From positions 1,088,001 through 1,152,000 of the forward strand of contig CATQHZ020000001.1 in assembly GCA_958296135.2 (NCBI GenBank): a stretch of DNA of 64,000 nucleotides, written 5' to 3'. A program made the position numbers and the translations under genes. The notes under the pieces are model-generated. The model was not told the DNA's origin. It did no database searches and saw only the letters and a program-made list of their open reading frames with translations. The stretch comes from an uncultured Poribacteria bacterium (GTDB taxonomy: Bacteria > Poribacteria > WGA-4E > WGA-3G). Of this stretch, positions 26,035-38,215 are shown in pieces (positions within the stretch are counted from its first letter, which is position 1; each line of letters opens with the position of its first letter).

Positions 26035-28296
26035 ATGCAACGCTTACAAACCCGTTTATCGCAGTTTCTACCCGATTTAGGCGTTGTCCGCTCTTCTCCC
26101 CTTCAACCTTACGTCGGACTCATCACCTTCTCAGCACTTTCCCTCGCAATAGGCTGCGGGATAGTCCTCCGAAACTATCTCACTTTTGCATGGCACGATA
26201 CTTCAGGCGTAATCGGCTGGGTCCGCATTCACCAGTATCCGAAACAACAAGAATTCTTCTATTACCTACTGGCACTTATTGGCATCCCCGCGGTGATATG
26301 TCTCTACTGGCTCGGCTGGCAGCTCTATTCTCATTGGGCAGCCAAACTGACAGCGCAACCGGTCTGCCATGTGCTTAAGGCGAACGCCTTGGCATCACTG
26401 CCGTTGTGGTTCTGTTGGCTACAACTTGTCAACGTGGACGCGGCTGGGGTGGCAGGTTTATTTCTCCCCATCGGTTTATCTGTCTTGACCAAGGTTGGGT
26501 TGCTCTATAACCGCTTTCTACCCGCCTTACAACATTCGGCAGATTTGCAAATTGAGGCACCATCTGCGGGAGTAAGCGCGCCCTCCCGGTCCCGGCTTCT
26601 AGACTTCAGTCAACGTTGCGCTGAATACGTCCTCCTCCCGATTTTCGTGTACCTCCTGATGTATTCGGGGAATATTGATGGGGCGCTCGATCTGTTTCAC
26701 GAAGGCGAACGCCTCGCGCCGCTGAATGAGATGTTACGCGGCGGCATTCCGTTCCGCGATATTTACGTCCAGCACGGGCTCTTCCAGAATACCTATTTGG
26801 CAGGCGTTGGGAGTCTGCTCTTTGAACCCACCCTGATGGGTGTGCGTTTGATGGAGCACGTCTTAGCCCCACTCGGCTACGTCGCGCTCTATCTACTCGG
26901 TTTGCAAGTCTTCCGCGCGCGATGGTTAATCGCCTTTATTTGCGTCCTCATCGCCTCTGGCACCGAATTCTCCGTTTCCGCGCGGCACAGTTTGGGTTTG
27001 CTCAGTTTCGCGATGGTGGCGAATTTTCTAACGCACTTCCGTAAGAGAACCCTCCCTGTCTCCGGGATTCGTCAGCATCTCACTTTCGGATGGAAGCTCA
27101 TCGTCGCCGGTATTTTGACAAGTTTGGCATTCTGGTATAGCACCGAGATTGGGCTCTATTCCCTCGGCGGTATCGGTTTATTCCTACTGCTATTTAGTCT
27201 GCAAAACGGGATGTCACTCTCAACGCGTCCGTTACCGTTGAGCCATTACATTTGCGGGATTCTGCTCGGTTTCCTCCCGGTGAGCCTTTACTTTCTGTGG
27301 CACGGTGCATTGGATGACCTGGGCTGGAATACCTATATCCAATGCCGCTACCAAATCGCGACGTGGGGATTAGCGTTTCCTTCACTCTCAGAGACACTGG
27401 GGATTCTCACTAAGGAAGGCTGGCGGGCTTTTGTCTTAAGCGAGGGGTTTCGGTGGTATCTGCCGATTGGCGTTTTTCTCACCGTGGCAGCCCATCTCAC
27501 CTATCGGTGTCTCCGCGGCGAATTGTGGACTTCAGAAGGCGCGACGAAACTGCTCCTCTTGTTGCTCGGCGGGATAGCCTTTTTCCGGACGGCCCTCGGC
27601 AGAGCTGATGGCGGACATTTGCATTACGGTTCGACTTTCCTGTGGCTTCTCTGTTTACTGCCGCTTGAACGCGGATTTTTCGGCATGGCGCATCATCTAT
27701 TTGCGAGTGCCCTGCGTTTTGTAAGGCGGCCGCCCACTCCTATCCCGCGCCGAGGCTTAACCTCTCTGAACGCCGCATGGATACTGATACCGATAGCGAT
27801 ATTCGGCTGGTATGTCGGCGAAGTGCATCAACCGCTGGCCGGTTTTGGGGAAAAATGGCAGCGATTGCGTCAAAATCCTTTCAGTCGGCGCGTTGCATCG
27901 GCAGAATTGGCGCGCGCCGGGCGCGTTGACATCCCCGATAAGCAGGTAGAACAGCTCCAGAAAGTGGTGGCCTACATCCACGAACACACCGCGCCCGACG
28001 AAAAGATTTTTGATTTTACGAGTCAAGGTGCCTATTACTTTTTCGCGAACCGGCCGAGCGTCACCCGATTTCATCAGGTTTCGTATGCCTCAACGCCTGC
28101 GATGCAGCGAGAGGTTGTCGCAGCATTGGCACGCGATGGGACGCGGTTGGTGCTCTTCAAAACCGGCGGTTGGTTTGATGCCGTTGATGGAATTCCTGTT
28201 GAGGCGCGGCATCCTATCATCGCGGCATATCTGCGAGCCAACTACACACGGGCCGTTGACATTAACGGCACACAAATTTTATGGCGGAACCCTTAG
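26035..28296 (+). CDS. Polytopic membrane protein, possibly GT-C glycosyltransferase-like
   Basis: Many TM segments; DLFHEGE...G.IPFRDIYVQHG motif; soluble C-terminal domain. Confidence 0.6.
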   Translation: MQRLQTRLSQFLPDLGVVRSSPLQPYVGLITFSALSLAIGCGIVLRNYLTFAWHDTSGVIGWVRIHQYPKQQEFFYYLLALIGIPAVICLYWLGWQLYSHWAAKLTAQPVCHVLKANALASLPLWFCWLQLVNVDAAGVAGLFLPIGLSVLTKVGLLYNRFLPALQHSADLQIEAPSAGVSAPSRSRLLDFSQRCAEYVLLPIFVYLLMYSGNIDGALDLFHEGERLAPLNEMLRGGIPFRDIYVQHGLFQNTYLAGVGSLLFEPTLMGVRLMEHVLAPLGYVALYLLGLQVFRARWLIAFICVLIASGTEFSVSARHSLGLLSFAMVANFLTHFRKRTLPVSGIRQHLTFGWKLIVAGILTSLAFWYSTEIGLYSLGGIGLFLLLFSLQNGMSLSTRPLPLSHYICGILLGFLPVSLYFLWHGALDDLGWNTYIQCRYQIATWGLAFPSLSETLGILTKEGWRAFVLSEGFRWYLPIGVFLTVAAHLTYRCLRGELWTSEGATKLLLLLLGGIAFFRTALGRADGGHLHYGSTFLWLLCLLPLERGFFGMAHHLFASALRFVRRPPTPIPRRGLTSLNAAWILIPIAIFGWYVGEVHQPLAGFGEKWQRLRQNPFSRRVASAELARAGRVDIPDKQVEQLQKVVAYIHEHTAPDEKIFDFTSQGAYYFFANRPSVTRFHQVSYASTPAMQREVVAALARDGTRLVLFKTGGWFDAVDGIPVEARHPIIAAYLRANYTRAVDINGTQILWRNP

Positions 28297-28363
28297 CCAA
28301 GGCTTCTTTGGCACATCTGAATTTTCTTGCAATGCAATGCCAAAATATGCTATACTACAAACT

Positions 28364-31300
28364 ATGCCACTGCTCAACCTCAAACCAACGCATAAGGCAA
28401 TAACTGCCTACTACGCCGCCCTTGAAAGGTATCAACAACTCGGTGTCTCCCACGAGACCGCGGTGCGCGCCGCCTTTCAAGCCCTGCTTGAAGCATGCGC
28501 ACGACGACGGAATTGGACGCTGGTTTGTGAATACTCGCTGCGACTTCCTGAGGGTTCGCGGGGGAAACCCTCGGCAGTTAGTGACTGCCGGGCCCCCGCG
28601 CTACGGGAGCCGCGACACGCGGTGATTCGCCTTGATGGCGCGCTGCTTGATGAACATAACTTGCCGCGCGGCACTTGGGAGGCAAAAGGGGTTCACGGAG
28701 ACCTCCGCGCTGACATGAGAAAGAAATTCGAGGCAGGGTATCCACAGGACAACATCCTCTTCCAAACCCCCGAGCGTGCCATTCTCTATCAGAACGGCCG
28801 CGAGGTGCTAGACGCAGACATCACTGAGCGGGAGACGCTCGTCTCGGTGCTGGAGACGTTCTTCGCCTACGAGCGTGAGAACGCCGCCGAGTGGCACGCT
28901 GCTGTCGCCGAGTTCAAAACCAAAGTGCCCGAACTGAAACGCGAGGTGGAGGCACTCATCACGGAGCAGCACGAAACGAACGCGCGCTTCCGAACGGCCT
29001 TCGCCGATTTCTATCAACTCTGTCAAGCCGCCATCCATCCGGCGCTCTCCCGGGCTGCCGTGGAGGAAATGCTTATCCAGCACTTATTGACAGAACGCAC
29101 CTTCCGCACGGTGTTCGCCAATCCGGATTTCACGCGCCGCAATATCATCGCACGCGACATTGAGAACGTCATTGACGCGCTCACCTCTAAGGCGTTTAGT
29201 CGAGACGCATTCCTCCAAAACTTGGACAGGTTCTATCGCGCCATCGAACGCGAGGCAGCCACCCTCGTCGATTTCTCACAAAAACAGCATTTTCTGAATA
29301 CCGTCTATGAACAGTTTTTTCAGGGCGATTCTGCCGATGTTGCCGATACGCACGGCATCGTCTATACGCCGCAACCGATTGTGGATTTCATGGTGAAGAG
29401 CGTTGACGCGCTCCTCCGAACCGAGTTCGAGCGTTCCCTCTCCGACGCGGGCGTTCACCTCATCGATGCGTTTGTCGGCACCGGCAACTTTATCGTCCGG
29501 CTGATGCGCGAGCTCGACCCGCTCAAACTGACTGCAAAATACCGTTCCGAACTCTGGTGCAACGAGGTGCTCCTCTTGCCCTACTATATCGCCAGTCTCA
29601 ATATTGAACGCGAGTTTTACGACATCACGCAGCAATATCTGCCGTTTGAAGGCATTTCCCTTGTCGATACGTTCGATCTGGCGGAAGACCGGCAGTTGTC
29701 ACTCTTAACACAAGAGAACACGGCGCGCGTGGAGAAGCAGAAGGCATCGCCGATGTTTGTCGTCATCGGCAATCCGCCCTATAACGTCGGGCAGGCGGAT
29801 GAACATGACCGGAACACGAACCGCAAGTACGCGGCGCTAGACAGGTTCATCCAAGAGACGTATGCGAAGGACTCAGTAGAGACGAACAAAAAATCGCTCT
29901 ATGACCTTTACGTCAAAGCGATAAAATGGGCATCGGAACGCATCGGCGAGGAGGGCATCGTCGCTCTCGTGACAAATAACAGTTTTCTGGACGCGAAGGC
30001 GTTTGACGGCATGCGCAAACATCTCGCCCAAGATTTTGACGCGCTCTATCTCCTCGACCTGGGTGGCAATGCCCGCAAAGACACCTTAGTCTCCAATGCG
30101 AGTGTGTTCGGCATCCGCGTCGGCGTAAGCATCAACTTCTTCGTCAAAAATCCCCGTAGGCGAGCCCTCCCGGTCTCAACAGGACGCATTTTTTACTATC
30201 GCACCGACGACGCGTGGGACAAAAACCAGAAATTCGACTTCCTCGCGCAAGCCGAGCACGTCGGCAACATCCCATGGCAAACGCTTTATCCCGACGCGCG
30301 GCACACGTGGCTCACCGAAGGACTCAACAGCGAGTTCACGACGTTTATCCCGCTAGGCAGCAAAACCGCTAAACGCGCCAAAGGCGAGGTTGAAGGTGTC
30401 ATTTTCCACCTCTATAGCAACGGCGTGAAAACCAATCGCGACCCGTGGGTTTGCAACTTTAACCGAAACACACTCGCCGAAAAGGTGCAGCTGATGAGCG
30501 ATTTCTACAATTCGCAACTGCGCGAGTGGAACGGCACCGAGGACACATCCGGGCTCACGGTTGATGATTTTGTCACCTATGCGCATACAAAAATCAAGTG
30601 GACCGGAGATTTGAGGGCGAAGTTGAAGCGCGGCCGCGCCGCCGAATACGATGAAAGCAACATTCGGCACTCGCTTTACCGCCCCTTCACAAAAACGCAT
30701 CTCTACTTTGAGCGGCACTTCAATGATAGAGTGTATCGGTTTCCCGCTATCTTTCCGACGCGAGAGACAGAAGCGGAAAATCGGGTGATTTGCGTCAATG
30801 TGACGCAGGAAAGACCTTTTACTTGTCTGATGGTTAATTGTCTCCCGAACATATCCGTGGCAGGAGGTTTTGGTTCGCCGGCGCAGTGCTTCCCCTTCTA
30901 CGTTTACGATGAAGACGGCACAAACCGCCGAGAAAACATTACCGATTGGGCGTTGCAAAACTTCCGCGTGCATTACGGCGACGAGAGTATCACCAAGGAG
31001 CACATCTTCAACTATATCTATGGGCTCCTGCATCATCCCGAGTATAGCGAACGGTATGCCGCCGATCTCAAGCGTGATCTGCCGCATATCCCTTTCGTTG
31101 AAGACTTCTGGGCATTTGCGGATGCAGGCGCGCGACTTGCTGAACTCCACGTCAACTATGAGGCGCAGCCGCAATATGAACTGACATCTATCAGAACGGG
31201 CCGCGCGTTCAATTTGCGCGTGGAACGGATGAAGTTGTCCAAAGACCGGACGCAGCTCATCTATAACGCGTCGCTCACGTTAGATGGGATCCCGGCGCGG

Positions 31301-31522
31301 GCGTTGGCGTATCGGTTGGGTGGGCGTTCGGCGTTAGAGTGGGTGGTGGATCAGTATCGCGTCAAAACCTATGAGCCGAGTGAGATTGTGAACGATCCGA
31401 ACGATGCGGAGGTGCCGGAGGCTATCGTGGCACTTATCGGTTCGGTAATTACGGTGAGTTTGAAGACGGTGGAGGTTGTGGAGGGGTTGCCGGCGTTGCA
31501 GTTGGATTTGGATTTGATATGA
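28364..31522 (+). CDS. Single-polypeptide restriction-modification enzyme (nuclease + N6-adenine MTase + type ISP-like TRD, no helicase)
   Basis: RLDG...WEAK nuclease motif, GIVYTPQPIVDFMV, DAFVGTGNF, NPPY, C-terminal YRLGGRSALEWVVDQY. Confidence 0.88.
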   Translation: MPLLNLKPTHKAITAYYAALERYQQLGVSHETAVRAAFQALLEACARRRNWTLVCEYSLRLPEGSRGKPSAVSDCRAPALREPRHAVIRLDGALLDEHNLPRGTWEAKGVHGDLRADMRKKFEAGYPQDNILFQTPERAILYQNGREVLDADITERETLVSVLETFFAYERENAAEWHAAVAEFKTKVPELKREVEALITEQHETNARFRTAFADFYQLCQAAIHPALSRAAVEEMLIQHLLTERTFRTVFANPDFTRRNIIARDIENVIDALTSKAFSRDAFLQNLDRFYRAIEREAATLVDFSQKQHFLNTVYEQFFQGDSADVADTHGIVYTPQPIVDFMVKSVDALLRTEFERSLSDAGVHLIDAFVGTGNFIVRLMRELDPLKLTAKYRSELWCNEVLLLPYYIASLNIEREFYDITQQYLPFEGISLVDTFDLAEDRQLSLLTQENTARVEKQKASPMFVVIGNPPYNVGQADEHDRNTNRKYAALDRFIQETYAKDSVETNKKSLYDLYVKAIKWASERIGEEGIVALVTNNSFLDAKAFDGMRKHLAQDFDALYLLDLGGNARKDTLVSNASVFGIRVGVSINFFVKNPRRRALPVSTGRIFYYRTDDAWDKNQKFDFLAQAEHVGNIPWQTLYPDARHTWLTEGLNSEFTTFIPLGSKTAKRAKGEVEGVIFHLYSNGVKTNRDPWVCNFNRNTLAEKVQLMSDFYNSQLREWNGTEDTSGLTVDDFVTYAHTKIKWTGDLRAKLKRGRAAEYDESNIRHSLYRPFTKTHLYFERHFNDRVYRFPAIFPTRETEAENRVICVNVTQERPFTCLMVNCLPNISVAGGFGSPAQCFPFYVYDEDGTNRRENITDWALQNFRVHYGDESITKEHIFNYIYGLLHHPEYSERYAADLKRDLPHIPFVEDFWAFADAGARLAELHVNYEAQPQYELTSIRTGRAFNLRVERMKLSKDRTQLIYNASLTLDGIPARALAYRLGGRSALEWVVDQYRVKTYEPSEIVNDPNDAEVPEAIVALIGSVITVSLKTVEVVEGLPALQLDLDLI

Positions 31523-31700: not shown

Positions 31701-32921
31701 ATGAATAGGCACTTTTTTTACAGGGGGCTGCTGGGCTGTGTGCTGAGCGTTTTCGTGCTTATGCCCATCGCCAGTGCGCAAGAATCTCCCACTACAAAGA
31801 TATACTGGGCGAGACCCGGGCGCATCGGGTGTGCGAATCTTGATGGCTCAAACCCTCAGGACCTGCTTCGTGCAGGACAGGGATGGGTGATGTCTCTCGC
31901 GCTAGACGCTGCTCGCGGCAAAATGTATTGGCGTGAATATGGAGCGGGGACAAATATGATTCGTTGTGCGAATCTTGATGGCTCAAACCCTCAGGACCTG
32001 CTTCGTGCAGGACAGGGATGGATAATTTCCCTTACGCTAGATACGAGTGCTGGCAAAATGTATTGGCGCGAAAAAGGTAAGATTCGTTGTGCGAACCTCG
32101 ATGGAACAAACCCGCAAGATTTGCTCACGGGACTGGTATCTGACTTAGTGCTAGATACTACCGGCGGCAAAATCTACTGGACCGAATTTGACGTGAGCAC
32201 CGACGCAGATAAAATTCGTTGTGCGAACCTCGATGGTTCAAACCCCCAGGACTTGCTCACAGGATTGGCATCCGTATCTAGTCTGATGTTGGACACTATC
32301 GGCGGCAAAATGTATTGGCGCGAAAACGGCTGGAACTTGCGCGCAGATAAATTTCGGTGCGCAAATCTGGATGGAACGGCCCCGCAAGAGCTCGTCACGG
32401 GATTTGATGTCGGTTCCTTCAGACTAGATACTATCGGCGGCAAAATCTATTGGATCAAACATGACTCAAGCACCGGAGAAAACAATTTTCGGCGTGCGAA
32501 CTTGGATGGCACAAATGTCCAAGCCCTCGTCACGGGCTTGGATGAAATTTGGTCTGTCACACTTGATGCTGCCGGCGGCAAAATCTACTGGCGCGAGTAT
32601 GACTCGGACACGCAAGAAGATAAAATTCGGCATGCGAATCTCGATGGCTCAAACCCGGAGACTCTCTTTACGAAGAAGGGATCTCCGGGCATTGTACCTA
32701 TCGTCGTGTTTCGCACAGAAGGTGCCGAGAGCGTGGTTGCTGCGGATGTCAATGGCGATGGGGTTGTGAACATTCAGGATTTAACCTGGGTCGCCTCGCG
32801 TTTTGGGAGAACGGGGCCGGATAGCGCGGATGTTAACGGCGATAATGTTGTTAATATTATGGATCTTGTCTTGGTGGCTGGGGCCCTAGATGCTGAAGCC
32901 GGCGGGCCTAGCGAAGATTGA
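31701..32921 (+). CDS. Secreted LDL-receptor class B (YWTD-like/DUF5050) repeat protein with C-terminal dockerin-like domain
   Basis: Seven KxYW...IRxANLDGSNPQ repeats; DVNGDGVVNIQDL and DVNGDNVVNIMDL. Confidence 0.9.
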   Translation: MNRHFFYRGLLGCVLSVFVLMPIASAQESPTTKIYWARPGRIGCANLDGSNPQDLLRAGQGWVMSLALDAARGKMYWREYGAGTNMIRCANLDGSNPQDLLRAGQGWIISLTLDTSAGKMYWREKGKIRCANLDGTNPQDLLTGLVSDLVLDTTGGKIYWTEFDVSTDADKIRCANLDGSNPQDLLTGLASVSSLMLDTIGGKMYWRENGWNLRADKFRCANLDGTAPQELVTGFDVGSFRLDTIGGKIYWIKHDSSTGENNFRRANLDGTNVQALVTGLDEIWSVTLDAAGGKIYWREYDSDTQEDKIRHANLDGSNPETLFTKKGSPGIVPIVVFRTEGAESVVAADVNGDGVVNIQDLTWVASRFGRTGPDSADVNGDNVVNIMDLVLVAGALDAEAGGPSED

Positions 32922-33295
32922 GACCAGGAGGGCGCGGGGCATCGAGCCCCGAGGTCTCTCCTACAAGGGGACATTGAGACGTGGGAGGTTGCGCCGCCGG
33001 TAGGAGGGACATCCCTGTCCCGATAAGGAATCAGCGAGACGCGGGAGGTTGCGCCTACAGCATCGAGACCAGGAGGTCTCTCCTACAAGGGGACATCGAG
33101 AGGCGGGAGGTTGCGCCGCCGGTAGGAGGGACATCCCTGTCCCGATACGGAACCAGCGAGACTACCGGGGAGGAGTCGAGCCCCGAGGTCTCTCCTACAA
33201 GGGGATATCGAGACGTGGGAGGTTGCGCCGCCGGTAGGAGGCGGAACCAGCGAGACTACTGGGGGGCATCGAGACGCAGGCGGTCTCTCCTACCG
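32920..33295. repeat. Composite REP (BIME-like) array
   Basis: Repeated GGGAGGTTGCGCCGCCGGTAGGAGGGACATCCCTGTCCCGAT and GAGGTCTCTCCTAC units. Confidence 0.85.
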
Positions 33296-33326
33296 AACAA
33301 GGAAGTAGACGTTTTTTTTTCGATAG

Positions 33327-34856
33327 ATGGGGGTGTTATTCATGCTAAACTTGAGCGATGTGCTCAATCCTTCAGCGAATGTGCAGGTGCATGCACACTG
33401 GGATGCGATGGCAGACGGGACGTTCAAACTATACGAAGATTCCCCACAACACGTGGAGTTGTTCAGCCTGTCTCCTGTCTCCCCGGTCCAGGCGTATGAG
33501 GCATCGGCGTTCACAGCCTTTCTCCCACCCTCGGACGTGACGGTGGGAGACGTATGGGAGTTGGAATTGGACAAGGTTGTCCCGTTCCTTTACCAATTTC
33601 ACACTGGGGCGACTGGGAAGTTAGTGCACGGGCAGGAAGGCGCGTTCGCCTGCTTACGGGCCCTTTCATCGGGTTATGCAGATATCGCGTTCCGCATCCA
33701 TGCAGAATTTACGTTGGAGAGTCCGGCACATAGGGAGTGGGCAAAGGCCAACGCGAGCGATGGTTGGGAGCCCCAGGCGCGTTTTATTCCATCGCAGTTC
33801 GCGGGACGCGTGCGGATCAATCTCAAGACGGAGCGGGTTCGCGATTTTTCGCTCTACCTGCCACCCCGCAATAGCAATGTTGATATCAACGCCTTTCGGT
33901 GCGCTGATATGGTATTTGTGCCGCGCATGGAACTTGGTGCCTCTGATAGGGCAGACCGCGGTGAGATTGCGTGGGATAGTGCTATCTCCGAGGAAGCCGC
34001 GCGCAAGGCGTTGGAACTGAAGTTCTACCGATTTGCTCAAATTGCGTGGAAACCGATTGAGGAGGCTGTTGCGTTTGCAAAAGCGGCGAACCGGCCCCTT
34101 CACGCGGTTCTGGTTTGGGGGCCGCTTGACGACGAATCGTGCTGAGCGAATGGCAAGAATTTGAGGGCGGGTCCGCTCTCTTCGCCGGAAGTTATTGAGA
34201 CGCTCAACGCGCAGTTTGTCAATACGTGGGTGCTACTTCGTGAGTTGCCGGCCCTGATAGATGGCGCGAGAGGGGAAGGTGCCGGTCGCGTCGCCGCGAA
34301 ACTCCAAGAGCATTACACCGATTCTGTTGATATTTTGGCACTGACTCCGGAGGCAGAGGTGATTATGCATCAGCCGGAGATGGCACTTATTGGGCGCAAT
34401 AAGGCCCCCTCTTATCTGACACTGCTTCGGCGTTCTGTGGAAGCGTTTGAGGGGAAACCCTTGCACCGCCCGATTAGTTTGGGGGAAAGGCAGGAGGTAT
34501 CAGGCACTTTTCGCGCCCCTGGCGATGGCTATCAGGATTACACGCCGGTTGAGATTGATGCCACCGCGTTTGAAAACGGCGGTGTCCTCCACATTGAGGT
34601 GCAGGTAGGCGACGACGGGGCGGAAGGCACGTGTGCCCTGTTTGATGCCGACACCGAGCTGCCGACAGAAGGAACGCCGGATGACGCGTTGGCTGGCCGT
34701 CGGGCTATTCCGCCCGGTGAAAAGGGACATGTTTTTCACCGTTTCAAACAGGGGCAGTGCTTTCGGCTGGGCGTGACAGGCAGCTGGGAAAACGAGAAGG
34801 GTAGCACCAACACCTTTCGCGCGCGTATTGCTATCGTGCCAAACCCGGTAGATTGA
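33327..34856 (+). CDS. Selenoprotein N (SelN/SELENON)-like protein; in-frame TGA at 34143-34145 read as selenocysteine
   Basis: ORFs 33327-34145 and 34161-34856 share a frame; motifs GAFACL, FRIHAEF, PSQFAG, PRMEL, WGPLDDESC*ANGKNLR...LNAQFVNTW match SelN on both sides of the TGA; start may be ATG 33342. Confidence 0.88.
34146..34186 (+). promoter_or_regulatory. Putative bacterial SECIS element
   Basis: Stem GAGGGCG(34163-69)/CGCTCTC(34174-80) with GGTC loop 24 nt after the TGA; GCGAA/TTCGC can form a lower stem. Confidence 0.75.
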
Positions 34857-34874
34857 TTTGTGGGGCGAGGGGGA

Positions 34875-35282
34875 AACCTGTCGCGCGCGTTTCAAATCTC
34901 CGCGCGCACAAAGGCGAGATACGCTCCTGACATTAACACATCGAGAGGCGGGAGGTTGCGCCGCCGGTAGGAGGGACATCCCTGTCCCGATACGAAATCA
35001 GCGAGACGCGGGAGGTTGCGCCTACCGGGAGAAATCGAGCCCCGAGGTCTCTCCTACAAGGGGACATTGAGAGGCGGGAGGTTGCGCCGCCGGTAGGTGG
35101 GACATCCCTGTCCCGATACGGATACAGCGAGAACAGAGGTTGCGCCTACCGGGGGAAATCGAGACCAGAGGTCTCTCCTACCGGGGAAATCGAGCCCCGA
35201 GGTCTCTCCTACCGGGTGGAACCTGTCGCGCGCGTTTCAAATCTCCGCGCGCACAAAGGCGAGATACGCTCCTGACATTAAC
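34875..35282. repeat. 63-bp direct repeats (34875-34937, 35220-35282) flanking a REP array
   Basis: AACCTGTCGCGCGCGTTTCAAATCTCC...CCTGACATTAAC present twice; the interval holds the same units as 32920-33295. Confidence 0.85.
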
Positions 35283-36646
35283 GCGATGAAAAGCAGCACG
35301 AGCAGTAGCAAATCCACTGCGGCGGTGTTGAAATCTCGGTTGAGGCTGCGTGTGTCTTTAAAGCGCGGCATTGCGGCGGGTTCAACCTTTCTCTGTGACA
35401 TGCCGGTGGGCACGCCGATGAGATGGAGACTCTCCGCATCGTGTCCATCGTTCTCGATGATGAATTCCCGGAATTGGCGGGCGTAAGGCTGAACGTTCTC
35501 CAAGAATTGGAGGTGTCTCTCGAACCCTGTGCCGGCGAACGTCTCCATGAGATGCTGGACGAGTGCTACAGGAGAGATTCGGATGATGGCACGTGCCTCC
35601 TTAACTTGTTGGATTTCCTGTGCTAAGCGTTCTCTGTTTAAGCGTTCATGTTGCTGTGCGTCTTTGGTGACGTACGCTCCCTGTTCTTGCAGGACAGCGT
35701 ATCGTTTCGTGTTTCGGATCCGGATGTATTCGCGATACTGCTCCTTAAGTGCCGTATCAAGTTGTCCCCGGCGTTCCTGAAATTCGGCGCGGGACATTGG
35801 TGATGAGAACCCCCGGACAATGGTGGCGAGGGTGCTCGGCATGAAAACGACGAAGGTTACCCAAGCCAAGAGGAGAATCACGAGACTCACGGCGCTGCGT
35901 TGCATCCGTGCAGAAACGAGCAGGCCTAACGCGAGGAAAAGGCAGACGTAGAGGATTGCGATGATGAAGATGATGCCTAGCCGGCCCCACTCTCCTGCAG
36001 TGAGTTGGACGCTGCGGGACGTGGAAATCACGAGCAGGTTCATCAAGGTGGCGAGTGTGAAAGGGATGAGGAGACTGATGAGCGCGCCGAGGAACTTGCC
36101 GAGTAGCACGGCGTGCCGTGGAATGGCATTTGCTAGCATTAAGCGCAGTGTGCCGCTTTCTCGCTCACCGGCGATGGCATCAAATGTGAACAGCAGCGCG
36201 GTAAGACTCAACACATAGCCGACGATGAACCCCCAATCCACTTTGGTAACCTCTGGGCGGATATTAGCCAAATTGGGTCTGACGGAGGGATAGTGCAGCC
36301 GCCAGAAAGATTTCAGCGCACCCCGCCGCCACGAGTGGGATTCTCCCCGAACAACGTCGGGTATAAATGCCTCGCCGCCTTCGGCACAGAAGTGGAGCGG
36401 TGACGGCGTTTTGTAAAAGTTGCCGGGGCCCTTTTGTGCAAGGGTATACAGGTTGTCTGCCCGCGCCGTTAAAGCATTTCGGGTGTTGGTGATAGCATCG
36501 TGATACTTCTGCATCCGTTTTGGATGTTCGCGGAGATGCGTCACGGCATTGGTGAGCATCAATGCGAGGAGCAGGAGGAGTGTCAAGCCAAAGCGGAGGC
36601 TATTGAGATTCTCGTAAATTTCGCGTGTTGCGATGTGCCAAATCAT
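35237..36646 (-). CDS. ABC-2 type transporter permease, subtype B copy 2
   Basis: MIWHIATRE, FTFDAIAGERESGTLRLMLAN, AYLAFVRAEI. Confidence 0.9.
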   Translation of the reverse strand: MIWHIATREIYENLNSLRFGLTLLLLLALMLTNAVTHLREHPKRMQKYHDAITNTRNALTARADNLYTLAQKGPGNFYKTPSPLHFCAEGGEAFIPDVVRGESHSWRRGALKSFWRLHYPSVRPNLANIRPEVTKVDWGFIVGYVLSLTALLFTFDAIAGERESGTLRLMLANAIPRHAVLLGKFLGALISLLIPFTLATLMNLLVISTSRSVQLTAGEWGRLGIIFIIAILYVCLFLALGLLVSARMQRSAVSLVILLLAWVTFVVFMPSTLATIVRGFSSPMSRAEFQERRGQLDTALKEQYREYIRIRNTKRYAVLQEQGAYVTKDAQQHERLNRERLAQEIQQVKEARAIIRISPVALVQHLMETFAGTGFERHLQFLENVQPYARQFREFIIENDGHDAESLHLIGVPTGMSQRKVEPAAMPRFKDTRSLNRDFNTAAVDLLLLVLLFIALMSGAYLAFVRAEI

Positions 36647-36700
36647 TTGTGTGTCCTCTGTATTCCCGGTAGGAGCCGCTCCGAGCCGCTCCGTTTGTGA

Positions 36701-38215
36701 TTACACCTCACTCCTCACGAACACCAGAAATATCGCCATAAATAAGACAAAGTTGGTTAGCACTAGGAGGAAAAGATGCGGCACTGCGCGCTGTGCGTTT
36801 ACCGCAATCCCGCTTCGCTGGTAAGAGAACGGCGGCAGCGTGCTCCAATCTGCCTCCGCTTTATCTGACAGAAACCACTCTCGCGCCGCGTAAACCTCTG
36901 TATCGTAGAGATAATTGACGAGTGCCCGCCGCCACTGCCGGGCTGCGACAAAAAAGTCTTGGATGCTCCCCCAATCGGTGCCTGCCCATGCTTGTGTTGC
37001 TGCATCATACATGCCGATAGGTGAAAGGTTCAACCACATTCTGTCCACTGCCGCCTGCTGGCCGTAGATATCCTTGAGTGCGGCATCTCGGACGTGCCAT
37101 GTCTGCTCTGCAGTCTTTATCATCAGCGGCACCAGGAATCGGAAATAATTCTGTGCGTGCGGTACCAGCGTTTCGCCCCTCGGTCCAACTTCACTATACT
37201 GGATGCTTATCCAGTAGTAATACCTTAAGGTTCTCCGCGAAGAGTTAAAGTCTGCTCCCACACTTCCGTATCCGTGTATGCCTAAATCCGGTTCCTCTCC
37301 AGGAACCAGATCATTGTGGAGGAACTTGAGGCGTTCTCTATCAAATTCTGTCCACAGTTGCTCTATCTGCTCAAAAGCGGTATCTCTGCGCGCCCTCGGG
37401 TCTTCCGGCGGATCCGTGGCGACTAAGATGACGTTTGGATACACCAGCACTAAGAAGCCCCATGCGAACATAGAGACTATCAAGGCGGTGCTTGTGCGGC
37501 GTGTCGCCGCCGAGATGAGCATTCCGATGAGGTAGAACACCGAGAGATACGCGAGCGATGCTAGCACGATGCCGCCGATGCGGAGAAAATCGTCGGTGCT
37601 CAGCGCGACGGCGGTGGCGGTAGTTAGCAAAATCAGCGCGAGGAGCAGACTCATCACCAACGGCACCAGGAGGCAGAGCATTGCACTGATGTATTTGGCG
37701 AGCAGGATGTATCCGCGGCGGATAGAATTCGTCAGGACTAAGCGTAACGTGCCGCGTTCGTGTTCTCCCGCAATCGCATCGTAGGCGAAAATGAGTGCCA
37801 TCAGGCTGAGCACTACCTCGAAGATGAAGACGATGTCAATGGCGGTGAAGATATTGAAGAGCGGATTATCCGCCCCGTGTGTGAAAGCATCCCACAGTGT
37901 CGGCACCAAATCGTGCGCAGCCGATACCGAGTTGCCCAACCGTTTATCCAATCCGACGTTGAAAATACTTAACGGATTCGGCGGTCTGGCGAGTTTTATC
38001 TCTTCGGCCAACCCCGCCATATAATTCTTTTTCTCCCGCAATTTCTGTTGATGCGTTTTGACAGCGGTGTTGTAGTCGGCTAATCGCCGCTCGTAGTCTT
38101 CAATGAGCACGGCCGTATTGGCGACGATTAACAGCAACATGATAAAGAGTGCCGCTGCGAAGCGGAATGTCATCAGATTATCAAGCAGTTCTCGGCGGAT
38201 AAGTGTTGTTAGCAT
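36701..38215 (-). CDS. ABC-2 type transporter permease, subtype A copy 2
   Basis: MLTTLIRRELLDNL, RPPNPLSIF, AYDAIAGEHERGTLRL. Confidence 0.9.
   Translation of the reverse strand: MLTTLIRRELLDNLMTFRFAAALFIMLLLIVANTAVLIEDYERRLADYNTAVKTHQQKLREKKNYMAGLAEEIKLARPPNPLSIFNVGLDKRLGNSVSAAHDLVPTLWDAFTHGADNPLFNIFTAIDIVFIFEVVLSLMALIFAYDAIAGEHERGTLRLVLTNSIRRGYILLAKYISAMLCLLVPLVMSLLLALILLTTATAVALSTDDFLRIGGIVLASLAYLSVFYLIGMLISAATRRTSTALIVSMFAWGFLVLVYPNVILVATDPPEDPRARRDTAFEQIEQLWTEFDRERLKFLHNDLVPGEEPDLGIHGYGSVGADFNSSRRTLRYYYWISIQYSEVGPRGETLVPHAQNYFRFLVPLMIKTAEQTWHVRDAALKDIYGQQAAVDRMWLNLSPIGMYDAATQAWAGTDWGSIQDFFVAARQWRRALVNYLYDTEVYAAREWFLSDKAEADWSTLPPFSYQRSGIAVNAQRAVPHLFLLVLTNFVLFMAIFLVFVRSEV

Follow-up and report, generated by a model that had tools for sequence, protein, structure and literature searches.

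The window analyzed here is a 64,000-nucleotide stretch of the genome of an uncultured Poribacteria bacterium of the sponge-symbiont type (GenBank assembly GCA_958296135.2, contig CATQHZ020000001.1, positions 1,088,001 to 1,152,000 of the forward strand), and positions are those of the window unless a contig is named. At 33327-34856 on the + strand it contains a single frame of 509 codons plus a terminal TGA at 34854-34856 (510 symbols when TGA is translated as U). The frame is interrupted by one internal TGA, at codon 273 (nucleotides 34143-34145), and by no further stop before the terminal one. Under translation table 11 the same stretch yields two open reading frames (ORFs), 33327-34145 (272 amino acids) and 34161-34856 (231 amino acids, with a TTG start). 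The residues before the internal TGA are ...LDDESC, and the in-frame continuation after it is ANGKNLRAGPLSS. The second methionine, at codon 6, may be the true start of the gene; its closest orthologues start near the same point as the window gene and lack a signal peptide. The genome itself (5.19 Mb in 4 contigs, 94.7% complete) carries one copy of the gene, recovered as a 100% match with 1 TGA inside. Our results indicate that these two "hypothetical" frames are almost certainly one gene whose internal UGA encodes selenocysteine (Sec), and we hold with high confidence that its product is a real Sec-containing bacterial homologue of selenoprotein N (SelN). The features of the gene, including a hairpin of the selenocysteine insertion sequence (SECIS) type, are listed below.

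33327..34856, + strand: complete selenoprotein N-like gene, very probably Sec-containing (reading frame; single copy; homology to animal SelN)
34143..34145, + strand: in-frame UGA at codon 273, directly after Cys272, almost certainly read as selenocysteine (TGA at 82 of 84 homologous sites)
34163..34180, + strand: putative SECIS hairpin of bacterial type, located within the coding region (fold and covariation in 75 distinct sequences)
33387..33932, + strand: predicted N-terminal beta-rich domain, about residues 21-202, approximate limits (transferred from the model of homologue P0005, strands 39-219)
33975..34436, + strand: predicted thioredoxin-like domain with Cys272-Sec273, about residues 217-370, approximate limits (P0005 model; Foldseek match to DsbH, 2ju5)
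34488..34841, + strand: predicted extra C-terminal beta-sandwich, about residues 388-505 (partial phmmer matches; Foldseek)

Sequence searches of the read-through protein against Pfam, NCBIfam and PDB returned nothing meaningful, and the family is without a curated model and without a solved relative. Homologues were identified using phmmer against 1.84 billion representative proteins, with UniRef names assigned to the matches. At E<=1e-3 this search recovered 642 proteins, of which 355 also pass E<=1e-10. Most of the matches listed end at query residue 272, which is their own C-terminus, indicating that these relatives were cut by gene callers at the same TGA. Two animal proteins are found among the matches listed, a hagfish protein named "Selenoprotein N" in UniRef (P0258, 8.4e-21) and its wombat orthologue (P0215, 3.7e-25). 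BLASTP alignments of the read-through protein with both of them span the TGA, covering query residues 87-346 for P0258 (5e-32) and 64-301 for P0215 (3e-32), at identities between the window protein and animal SelN of 29-31%. The best 120 of the 413 matches of the hagfish protein are all animal, echinoderms included, and most carry the name selenoprotein N or SELN. The bacterial form P0124 has "Selenoprotein N" as its nearest cluster in the ESM Atlas (score of 0.93), followed by clusters of bacterial hypothetical proteins that are commonest in Planctomycetota. A profile search with the bacterial run-through forms (alignment A6) returned 3 proteins and was uninformative on taxonomic range. With 642 phmmer matches that include a "Selenoprotein N" at 8.4e-21, and with a TGA at 82 of 84 homologous sites, this pattern is far beyond what chance would produce.

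A prior reading of the DNA letters without database searches (hereafter the sequence-only reading) had joined ORF 33327-34145 and its continuation to 34856 into one frame and had listed six blocks of animal SelN with counterparts in it. The single frame was borne out, and all six blocks (GAFACL, FRIHAEFTL, PSQFAG, VRDFSL, NVD and PRMEL) occur in that order in the read-through translation, with counterparts visible in animal SelN in the pairwise alignments. The similarity to SELENON thus proposed holds on both sides of the TGA. The same reading had placed the TGA exactly on the Sec position of the animal protein. This claim stands as an indirect column match, since gene models of animal SelN show a 2-residue hole precisely at the U-A column of the window protein; it does not extend to the fourth residue of the motif, which is alanine instead of glycine. 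The window protein reads S-C-U-A-N-G-K at this place and its poribacterial paralogues read S-C-U-G-S/T-G-K. In animals, Sec is described as part of an S-C-U-G motif that a January 2026 review likens to the G-C-U-G of thioredoxin reductase and to which it ascribes oxidoreductase activity (PMC12839072).

Evidence for translation of the UGA comes from its conservation. We used a pattern scan covering a single genome of each prokaryotic species, which confirmed 300 relatives, and examined the best 80 loci. All 80 are from metagenome-assembled genomes of Candidatus Poribacteria and are 40-63% identical to the query at the protein level; because four of them hold two tandem copies, they provide 84 homologous sites. 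A TGA is present at 82 of these sites, with the frame kept on both sides. The two remaining sites carry TGG (L068, in which the gene is a single ORF) and TGT followed by loss of frame (L089). The residues before the TGA (DDESC) and after it (A/G-N/S/T-G-K-x-L-R-A-G-P-L-S) are conserved in frame, and the codons that immediately follow vary synonymously (GGC/GGT/GGA, AAA/AAG), which argues that they are translated. The cysteine of column 272 is invariant in alignment A2.

A second survey, in which the paralogue P0006 was searched against 151 genomes of the same phylum, gave matches in 117 of them and well over a thousand matches in all; among the matches listed, nine have no internal stop and every other one has exactly one TGA. 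In the orthologue group of P0006, eight of the ten loci fetched (L102-L109) show TGA (2 loci), GGC (4) or GGA (2) at the Sec column. In the copies in which a glycine codon replaces Sec (L104-L109), the two halves consequently form a single ORF. The protein records P0124, P0129, P0155 and P0174 likewise continue through the column, at which they show cysteine, a letter C that may also stand for U in these records. Taken together with L068, these single-ORF relatives show, at the level of sequence, that the two halves form one protein. Among the close relatives of group L102-L109, it is glycine and not cysteine that takes the place of Sec.

Genomes differ in the copy number of the gene: there is one copy here, and relatives have tandem arrays and as many as about 20 matches in a genome. 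Tandem SelN-like copies occur in L070, L071, L072 and L074. The 541-amino acid record P0002 is a gene-caller chimera that joins the post-TGA half of one tandem copy to the pre-TGA half of the next.

Two further expectations of the sequence-only reading concerned the reliability of the TGA and its annotation. The TGA is unchanged in contigs of 4 sequencing runs, all from one sample that is possibly the source itself and therefore not independent, and its retention at 82 of 84 sites in relatives also speaks against a read error. In 2 of these 4 runs, contigs carry insertions of 1-2 bases at positions 34116 and 34432, the other two being exact; these insertions look like assembly noise rather than variation. 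As anticipated, standard annotation splits such genes, NCBI labelling halves of relatives of about 280-305 amino acids "hypothetical protein [Candidatus Poribacteria bacterium]". On whether TGA or a cysteine codon aligns in bacterial homologues, the DNA of the loci read shows mostly TGA, the exceptions found being the TGG, TGT, GGC and GGA codons described above.

A bacterial SECIS element is a stem-loop shortly after the UGA with G/U in its apical loop. The position and loop of a hairpin that begins 17 nucleotides after the UGA fit this consensus: a 7-bp stem (34163-34169 paired with 34174-34180) closes the loop GGUC (34170-34173). When 75 distinct sequences were compared, standard pairs filled 95.2% of the 525 pair cells, and three of the seven stem pairs had compensatory changes: 3 rows have CG for GC, 1 row has UA for CG and 8 rows have AU for GC. 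The covariation score observed was matched by none of 500 shuffles, and each slid register scores lower. Third codon positions in the stem are nearly fixed. The rows that break this register, mainly L062 and L070-L074, have an equivalent stem shifted by one base with GGU again in the loop, according to inspection of the rows by eye.

The genome also encodes the machinery required for Sec insertion, on which the sequence-only reading had made its proposal depend. Matches to selA (596 bits), selB (317.5 bits), selD (350.6 bits) and, adjoining selB, tRNA-Sec (78.1 bits) each exceed their curated cut-off. The selD gene contains one in-frame TGA and, judging from its sequence, is probably a selenoprotein gene itself. 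Three of these genes were located in the genome outside the window, as follows.

C1:2394310-2396223: selB
C1:2394175-2394264: tRNA-Sec, beside selB
G000:C1:2864299-2865270 (locus L011): selD, with an in-frame TGA

The proposal of a Sec-containing SelN is thereby supported by homology, by a conserved TGA and by a complete Sec machinery. In the mechanism that we propose, SelB with Sec-tRNA(Sec) would bind the mRNA hairpin at 34163-34180 and deliver selenocysteine at UGA273, so that one protein of about 509 residues would be made instead of translation stopping. We infer this SelB-dependent insertion at codon 273 from the gene, its hairpin and the genome's own machinery.

The architecture of the protein was investigated using a structure model of P0005, a 43%-identical homologue of the same architecture, and not of the window protein itself; phmmer maps query residues 47-505 onto residues 65-522 of P0005. 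The AlphaFold2 model (pLDDT of 91.7 and pTM of 0.80, from a 133-row alignment) shows three domains: the N-terminal one is beta-rich, the middle one is a thioredoxin-like alpha/beta domain, and the C-terminal one is a beta-sandwich. The cysteine and the Sec column (residues 284-285 of P0005) lie in the loop that connects strand 270-275 to helix 288-295. In Foldseek searches against PDB, the thioredoxin-like part matched the DsbH oxidoreductase 2ju5 (TM-score on target of 0.63 over 147 columns), and the C-terminal part matched the collagen-binding domain of a collagenase, 3jqw (TM-score on target of 0.62), as well as CBM6 and GOLD domains. The beta-sandwich probably binds a partner or ligand. 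It behaves as a separate module: many proteins match just query residues 388-506 in phmmer searches, animal SelN and bacterial forms of about 390-420 amino acids stop before it (alignment A2), and it recurs on S9 peptidase, extracytoplasmic function (ECF) sigma and BlaR1-M56 proteins. An ECF sigma factor is fused to the N-terminus of the SelN-like domain in some paralogues (P0155, P0110). A supposed fusion of the beta-sandwich to Redoxin proteins was dropped, as the P0099-type records concerned are post-TGA halves of paralogues in which an AhpC/Redoxin domain replaces the beta-sandwich. The modules of the family are shuffled among records P0155, P0110, P0169, P0179, P0168 and P0099. The window protein has no hydrophobic segment (maximum 15-residue Kyte-Doolittle mean of 1.2, versus 2.06 for the N-terminus of P0005), and its closest orthologues likewise lack a hydrophobic N-terminus, other subfamilies having a signal peptide or membrane anchor. 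From the lack of such an N-terminus we infer that the window copy probably works in the cytoplasm.

The position of the Cys272-Sec273 pair, just before the first helix, is the one at which thioredoxin-fold enzymes hold their redox centre. The protein would most likely be a thiol/selenol oxidoreductase, alternating between a selenol/thiol form and a Cys-Sec selenenylsulfide as it reduces oxidised cysteines of client proteins. We lean towards this redox-enzyme reading and consider it somewhat more probable than not.

Relationships within the family were examined in a careful maximum-likelihood tree of 60 rows and 389 columns that is unrooted, includes 8 animal sequences and leaves most rows without a taxon label. 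The window protein falls inside a poribacterial clade (support of 100/99), and a 37-row group that includes this clade is split from a 23-row group with the 8 animal sequences (100/99), the animals occupying one long branch. When animals were joined to the poribacterial clade in the same 60 rows, the constrained tree was 18.6 log-likelihood units lower and the approximately unbiased (AU) test gave p = 0.131. A quick 90-row tree also set the animals apart, with weak support, and there the constrained tree scored better (p = 0.848). These trees do not lead us to name a donor or to say which way the gene moved, because the AU test does not reject the joined topology in spite of the 100/99 separation, and because the tree is unrooted and mostly unlabelled. 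A recent transfer between host and symbiont is unlikely given the identity of 29-31%, and an ancient link between the animal and bacterial genes, in either direction, may exist. One tentative scenario, which we regard as possible but do not favour, is that animal SelN descends from a diverse family of bacterial selenoproteins by ancient transfer into the animal stem lineage, the donor possibly being a symbiont lineage like today's sponge-dwelling Poribacteria, and that the EF-hand and the membrane anchor were added after the transfer. It is consistent with the contrast between 642 representative clusters at 50% identity, mostly truncated prokaryote-style at the TGA, and one long-branched animal clade, and with the AU results for animals joined to Poribacteria.

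Several observations weigh against the interpretation of the gene as a Sec-containing SelN homologue with a redox function. Sec is dispensable in the family, tryptophan and glycine codons being present at its column in some relatives, as verified in DNA, and the residue after Sec in the window protein is alanine, not the glycine of the animal S-C-U-G. The 63-nucleotide stretch that contains the hairpin folds no better than shuffles (z = -0.68; 43 of 200 at least as stable), 4-10 of the 75 rows break some pairs in the fixed register, and an Rfam scan of 33200-35100 at E<=10 returned four chance-level matches and no SECIS family. Since the stem bases also encode the conserved peptide L-R-A-G-P-L-S, conservation of the hairpin may partly stem from the protein. 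The structure is that of a homologue, and its fold matches are weak and at the level of domains only. One other genome of the same genus was searched (G080) and gave no match with the P0006 query, which matched the window's genome at 1.8e-81; the gene may be absent from G080 or too divergent for this query. Finally, the neighbouring genes (a Type ISP enzyme, a dockerin/beta-propeller protein and ABC-2 permeases) offer no functional clue.

The simplest rival explanation is that the TGA is a real stop, created by a nonsense mutation or a sequencing error, which would leave a pseudogene or a truncated protein of 272 residues. Table 11 does place a stop at 34143-34145, NCBI and gene callers split the relatives into hypothetical halves, and one relative, L089, has lost its frame right after the column. 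Well over a thousand paralogues would not, however, share a random nonsense mutation at the same column, and TGA is found at 82 of 84 sites in loci that are only 40-63% identical and that keep both halves in frame. Its persistence in contigs of the 4 runs (from the one sample, possibly the source), the conserved hairpin that follows it and the full Sec machinery of the genome also make a genuine stop very unlikely. The TTG at 34161, five codons past the TGA, permits ORF 34161-34856 and hence a second view, in which an N-terminal protein ends at the TGA and another protein starts independently; many second-half proteins are indeed present in databases, P0117 and P0118 for example, starting at query residue 279. 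This arrangement is highly improbable given that the five codons between TGA and TTG change synonymously while their peptide (A-N-G-K-N) is conserved, that relatives with a sense codon are single ORFs and that the alignment with animal SelN is continuous over the junction. According to the model, the junction also falls between the first strand and the first helix inside one thioredoxin-like domain, so that a split would cut the fold.

A different objection accepts selenocysteine and questions the enzyme: the Cys-Sec pair could be a metal- or selenium-binding site or a sensor, in which case likeness to SelN would say little on function. This possibility, which we consider unlikely without dismissing it, draws on the facts that activity has been shown for no bacterial member, that the biochemistry of animal SelN is itself called poorly defined in the 2020 study (PMC7474598), and that some paralogues have Gly or Trp in place of Sec, a change that a strict redox catalyst would tolerate poorly. 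The ECF sigma fusions (P0155, P0110), together with the C-terminal module on sigma and BlaR1-type sensor proteins, hint at signalling. On the contrary, the pair occupies the canonical active-site position of the thioredoxin fold and the nearest fold match is an oxidoreductase, the cysteine of column 272 is invariant (alignment A2), and the AhpC/Redoxin domain that follows the SelN-like core in some paralogues links the family to thiol redox chemistry. It could also be argued that the gene is eukaryotic and comes from the sponge host, as contamination or by very recent host-to-symbiont transfer. SelN is otherwise described from eukaryotes only, a SelN of its own is reported for the sponge Amphimedon (PMC3473315), and grouping animals with the poribacterial clade was not rejected by the AU test (p = 0.13 and p = 0.85). 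We find a host origin barely credible for a gene that sits between bacterial genes on a bacterial contig several megabases long, in a genome of 5.19 Mb that is 94.7% complete. The gene has a coding-region hairpin, as opposed to the eukaryotic-type SECIS element reported for the Amphimedon gene (PMC3473315), it is 29-31% identical to animal SelN against up to 63% to other poribacterial copies, and the careful tree sets the animals apart with 100/99 support. A bacterial, Sec-containing SelN homologue therefore remains our interpretation of the locus.

The surroundings of the gene were also annotated. Directly upstream, at 28010-31522 (+), lies a gene for a 1170-amino acid Type ISP restriction-modification enzyme (Type_ISP_C, 1.4e-102; coupler and methylase domains), after which 31701-32921 encodes a protein with a dockerin and a low-density lipoprotein (LDL)-receptor class B / DUF5050 beta-propeller. 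Downstream, 35237-38215 (-) contains a pair of adjacent ABC-2 permease paralogues with DUF3526. A scan of 32800-35300 for promoters and terminators found one site resembling each, a yield no higher than in shuffles, and no RNA data are listed among the data sets that contain the gene stretch.

Recognition of a bacterial SelN bears on a protein of medical importance. SelN is mutated in SEPN1-related myopathies, and a 2020 PNAS study describes its biochemistry as poorly defined, reports that no three-dimensional structure had been solved as of that study, and notes the difficulty of purifying the protein in active form, SelN being both a membrane protein and a selenoprotein (PMC7474598). The window gene very probably encodes a bacterial member of this known family, a soluble relative of animal selenoprotein N; such a homologue, with the same two core domains and a Cys-Sec centre, would open structure, redox potential, substrate trapping and changes near the active site to testing. 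If the ancient-transfer scenario were true, soluble single-chain bacterial members would be direct and tractable models of the catalytic core of a human disease protein. Searches of the literature turned up no report of a bacterial SelN, with the limit that supplementary tables may list the family under another name, table S9 of PMC4807772 (planctomycete selenoprotein candidates) among them, and a search with the term "poribacteriae" found no papers. The word "bacteria" is absent from the text of the 2020 PNAS study. Neither SelN nor a bacterial SelN is mentioned in the available text of a prokaryotic selenoproteome review (PMC13188914, May 2026), of the BSepDB, 2008 Global Ocean Sampling (GOS) and Asgard selenoproteome papers or, as regards bacteria, of the SelN review PMC12839072; the supplements of PMC13188914 and BSepDB may again use another name. 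In a 2020 survey, SelN is placed within a metazoan accretion (PMC7016017). The present findings add to the prokaryotic selenoproteome a large family that annotation now splits into "hypothetical" halves, and they reopen the question of the origin of an "animal" endoplasmic reticulum (ER) protein. They also suggest that redox chemistry based on selenium is a major trait of the dominant symbionts of sponges, one that has gone unrecognised.

The window protein can be compared with three known systems. Its closest kin are the poribacterial SelN-like paralogues, which share the core, the TGA column and the hairpin and among which it is nested in the tree (100/99); they differ in that they occur in many copies and include forms with signal peptides or anchors, with an AhpC/Redoxin domain, with an ECF-sigma fusion, or with Gly or Trp for Sec. 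With DsbH (2ju5) and other thioredoxin-fold oxidoreductases, it shares the placement of a redox pair right before the first helix. The similarity is modest (TM-score of 0.63 on target), those enzymes have CxxC where the window protein has C-U, and the read-through protein has no sequence match to any PDB chain or to Pfam and NCBIfam thioredoxin families. The adjacent Cys-Sec pair of the window protein recalls the G-C-U-G centre of thioredoxin reductase, a comparison drawn for the animal motif in PMC12839072.

Animal SelN is the third system. Its N-terminal beta-rich and thioredoxin-like domains are homologous to those of the window protein, in which the UGA falls at the column of the 2-residue hole in animal gene models; the animal thioredoxin domain is described as containing the Sec (PMC7474598). 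At its N-terminus, animal SelN is reported to have a type II membrane anchor and a luminal EF-hand calcium sensor (PMC7474598, PMC10650576), whereas the window protein has neither (no Pfam EF-hand and no hydrophobic segment), and alignment A2 shows nothing that corresponds to the N-terminal extension of the animal protein. Conversely, the window protein carries an extra C-terminal beta-sandwich that is missing from animal SelN. The two genes also differ in how the UGA would be decoded, through a eukaryotic SECIS element in the 3′ untranslated region in animals and through a bacterial-type hairpin inside the coding sequence here. Animal SelN resides in the ER lumen, where it is described as a redox regulator of the SERCA calcium pump (PMC7474598), while the window protein is probably cytoplasmic; a client such as SERCA is known for the animal protein and none for the bacterial form. 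The two proteins have in common a two-domain core in which a cysteine is followed by a residue that is selenocysteine in animals and very probably so here.

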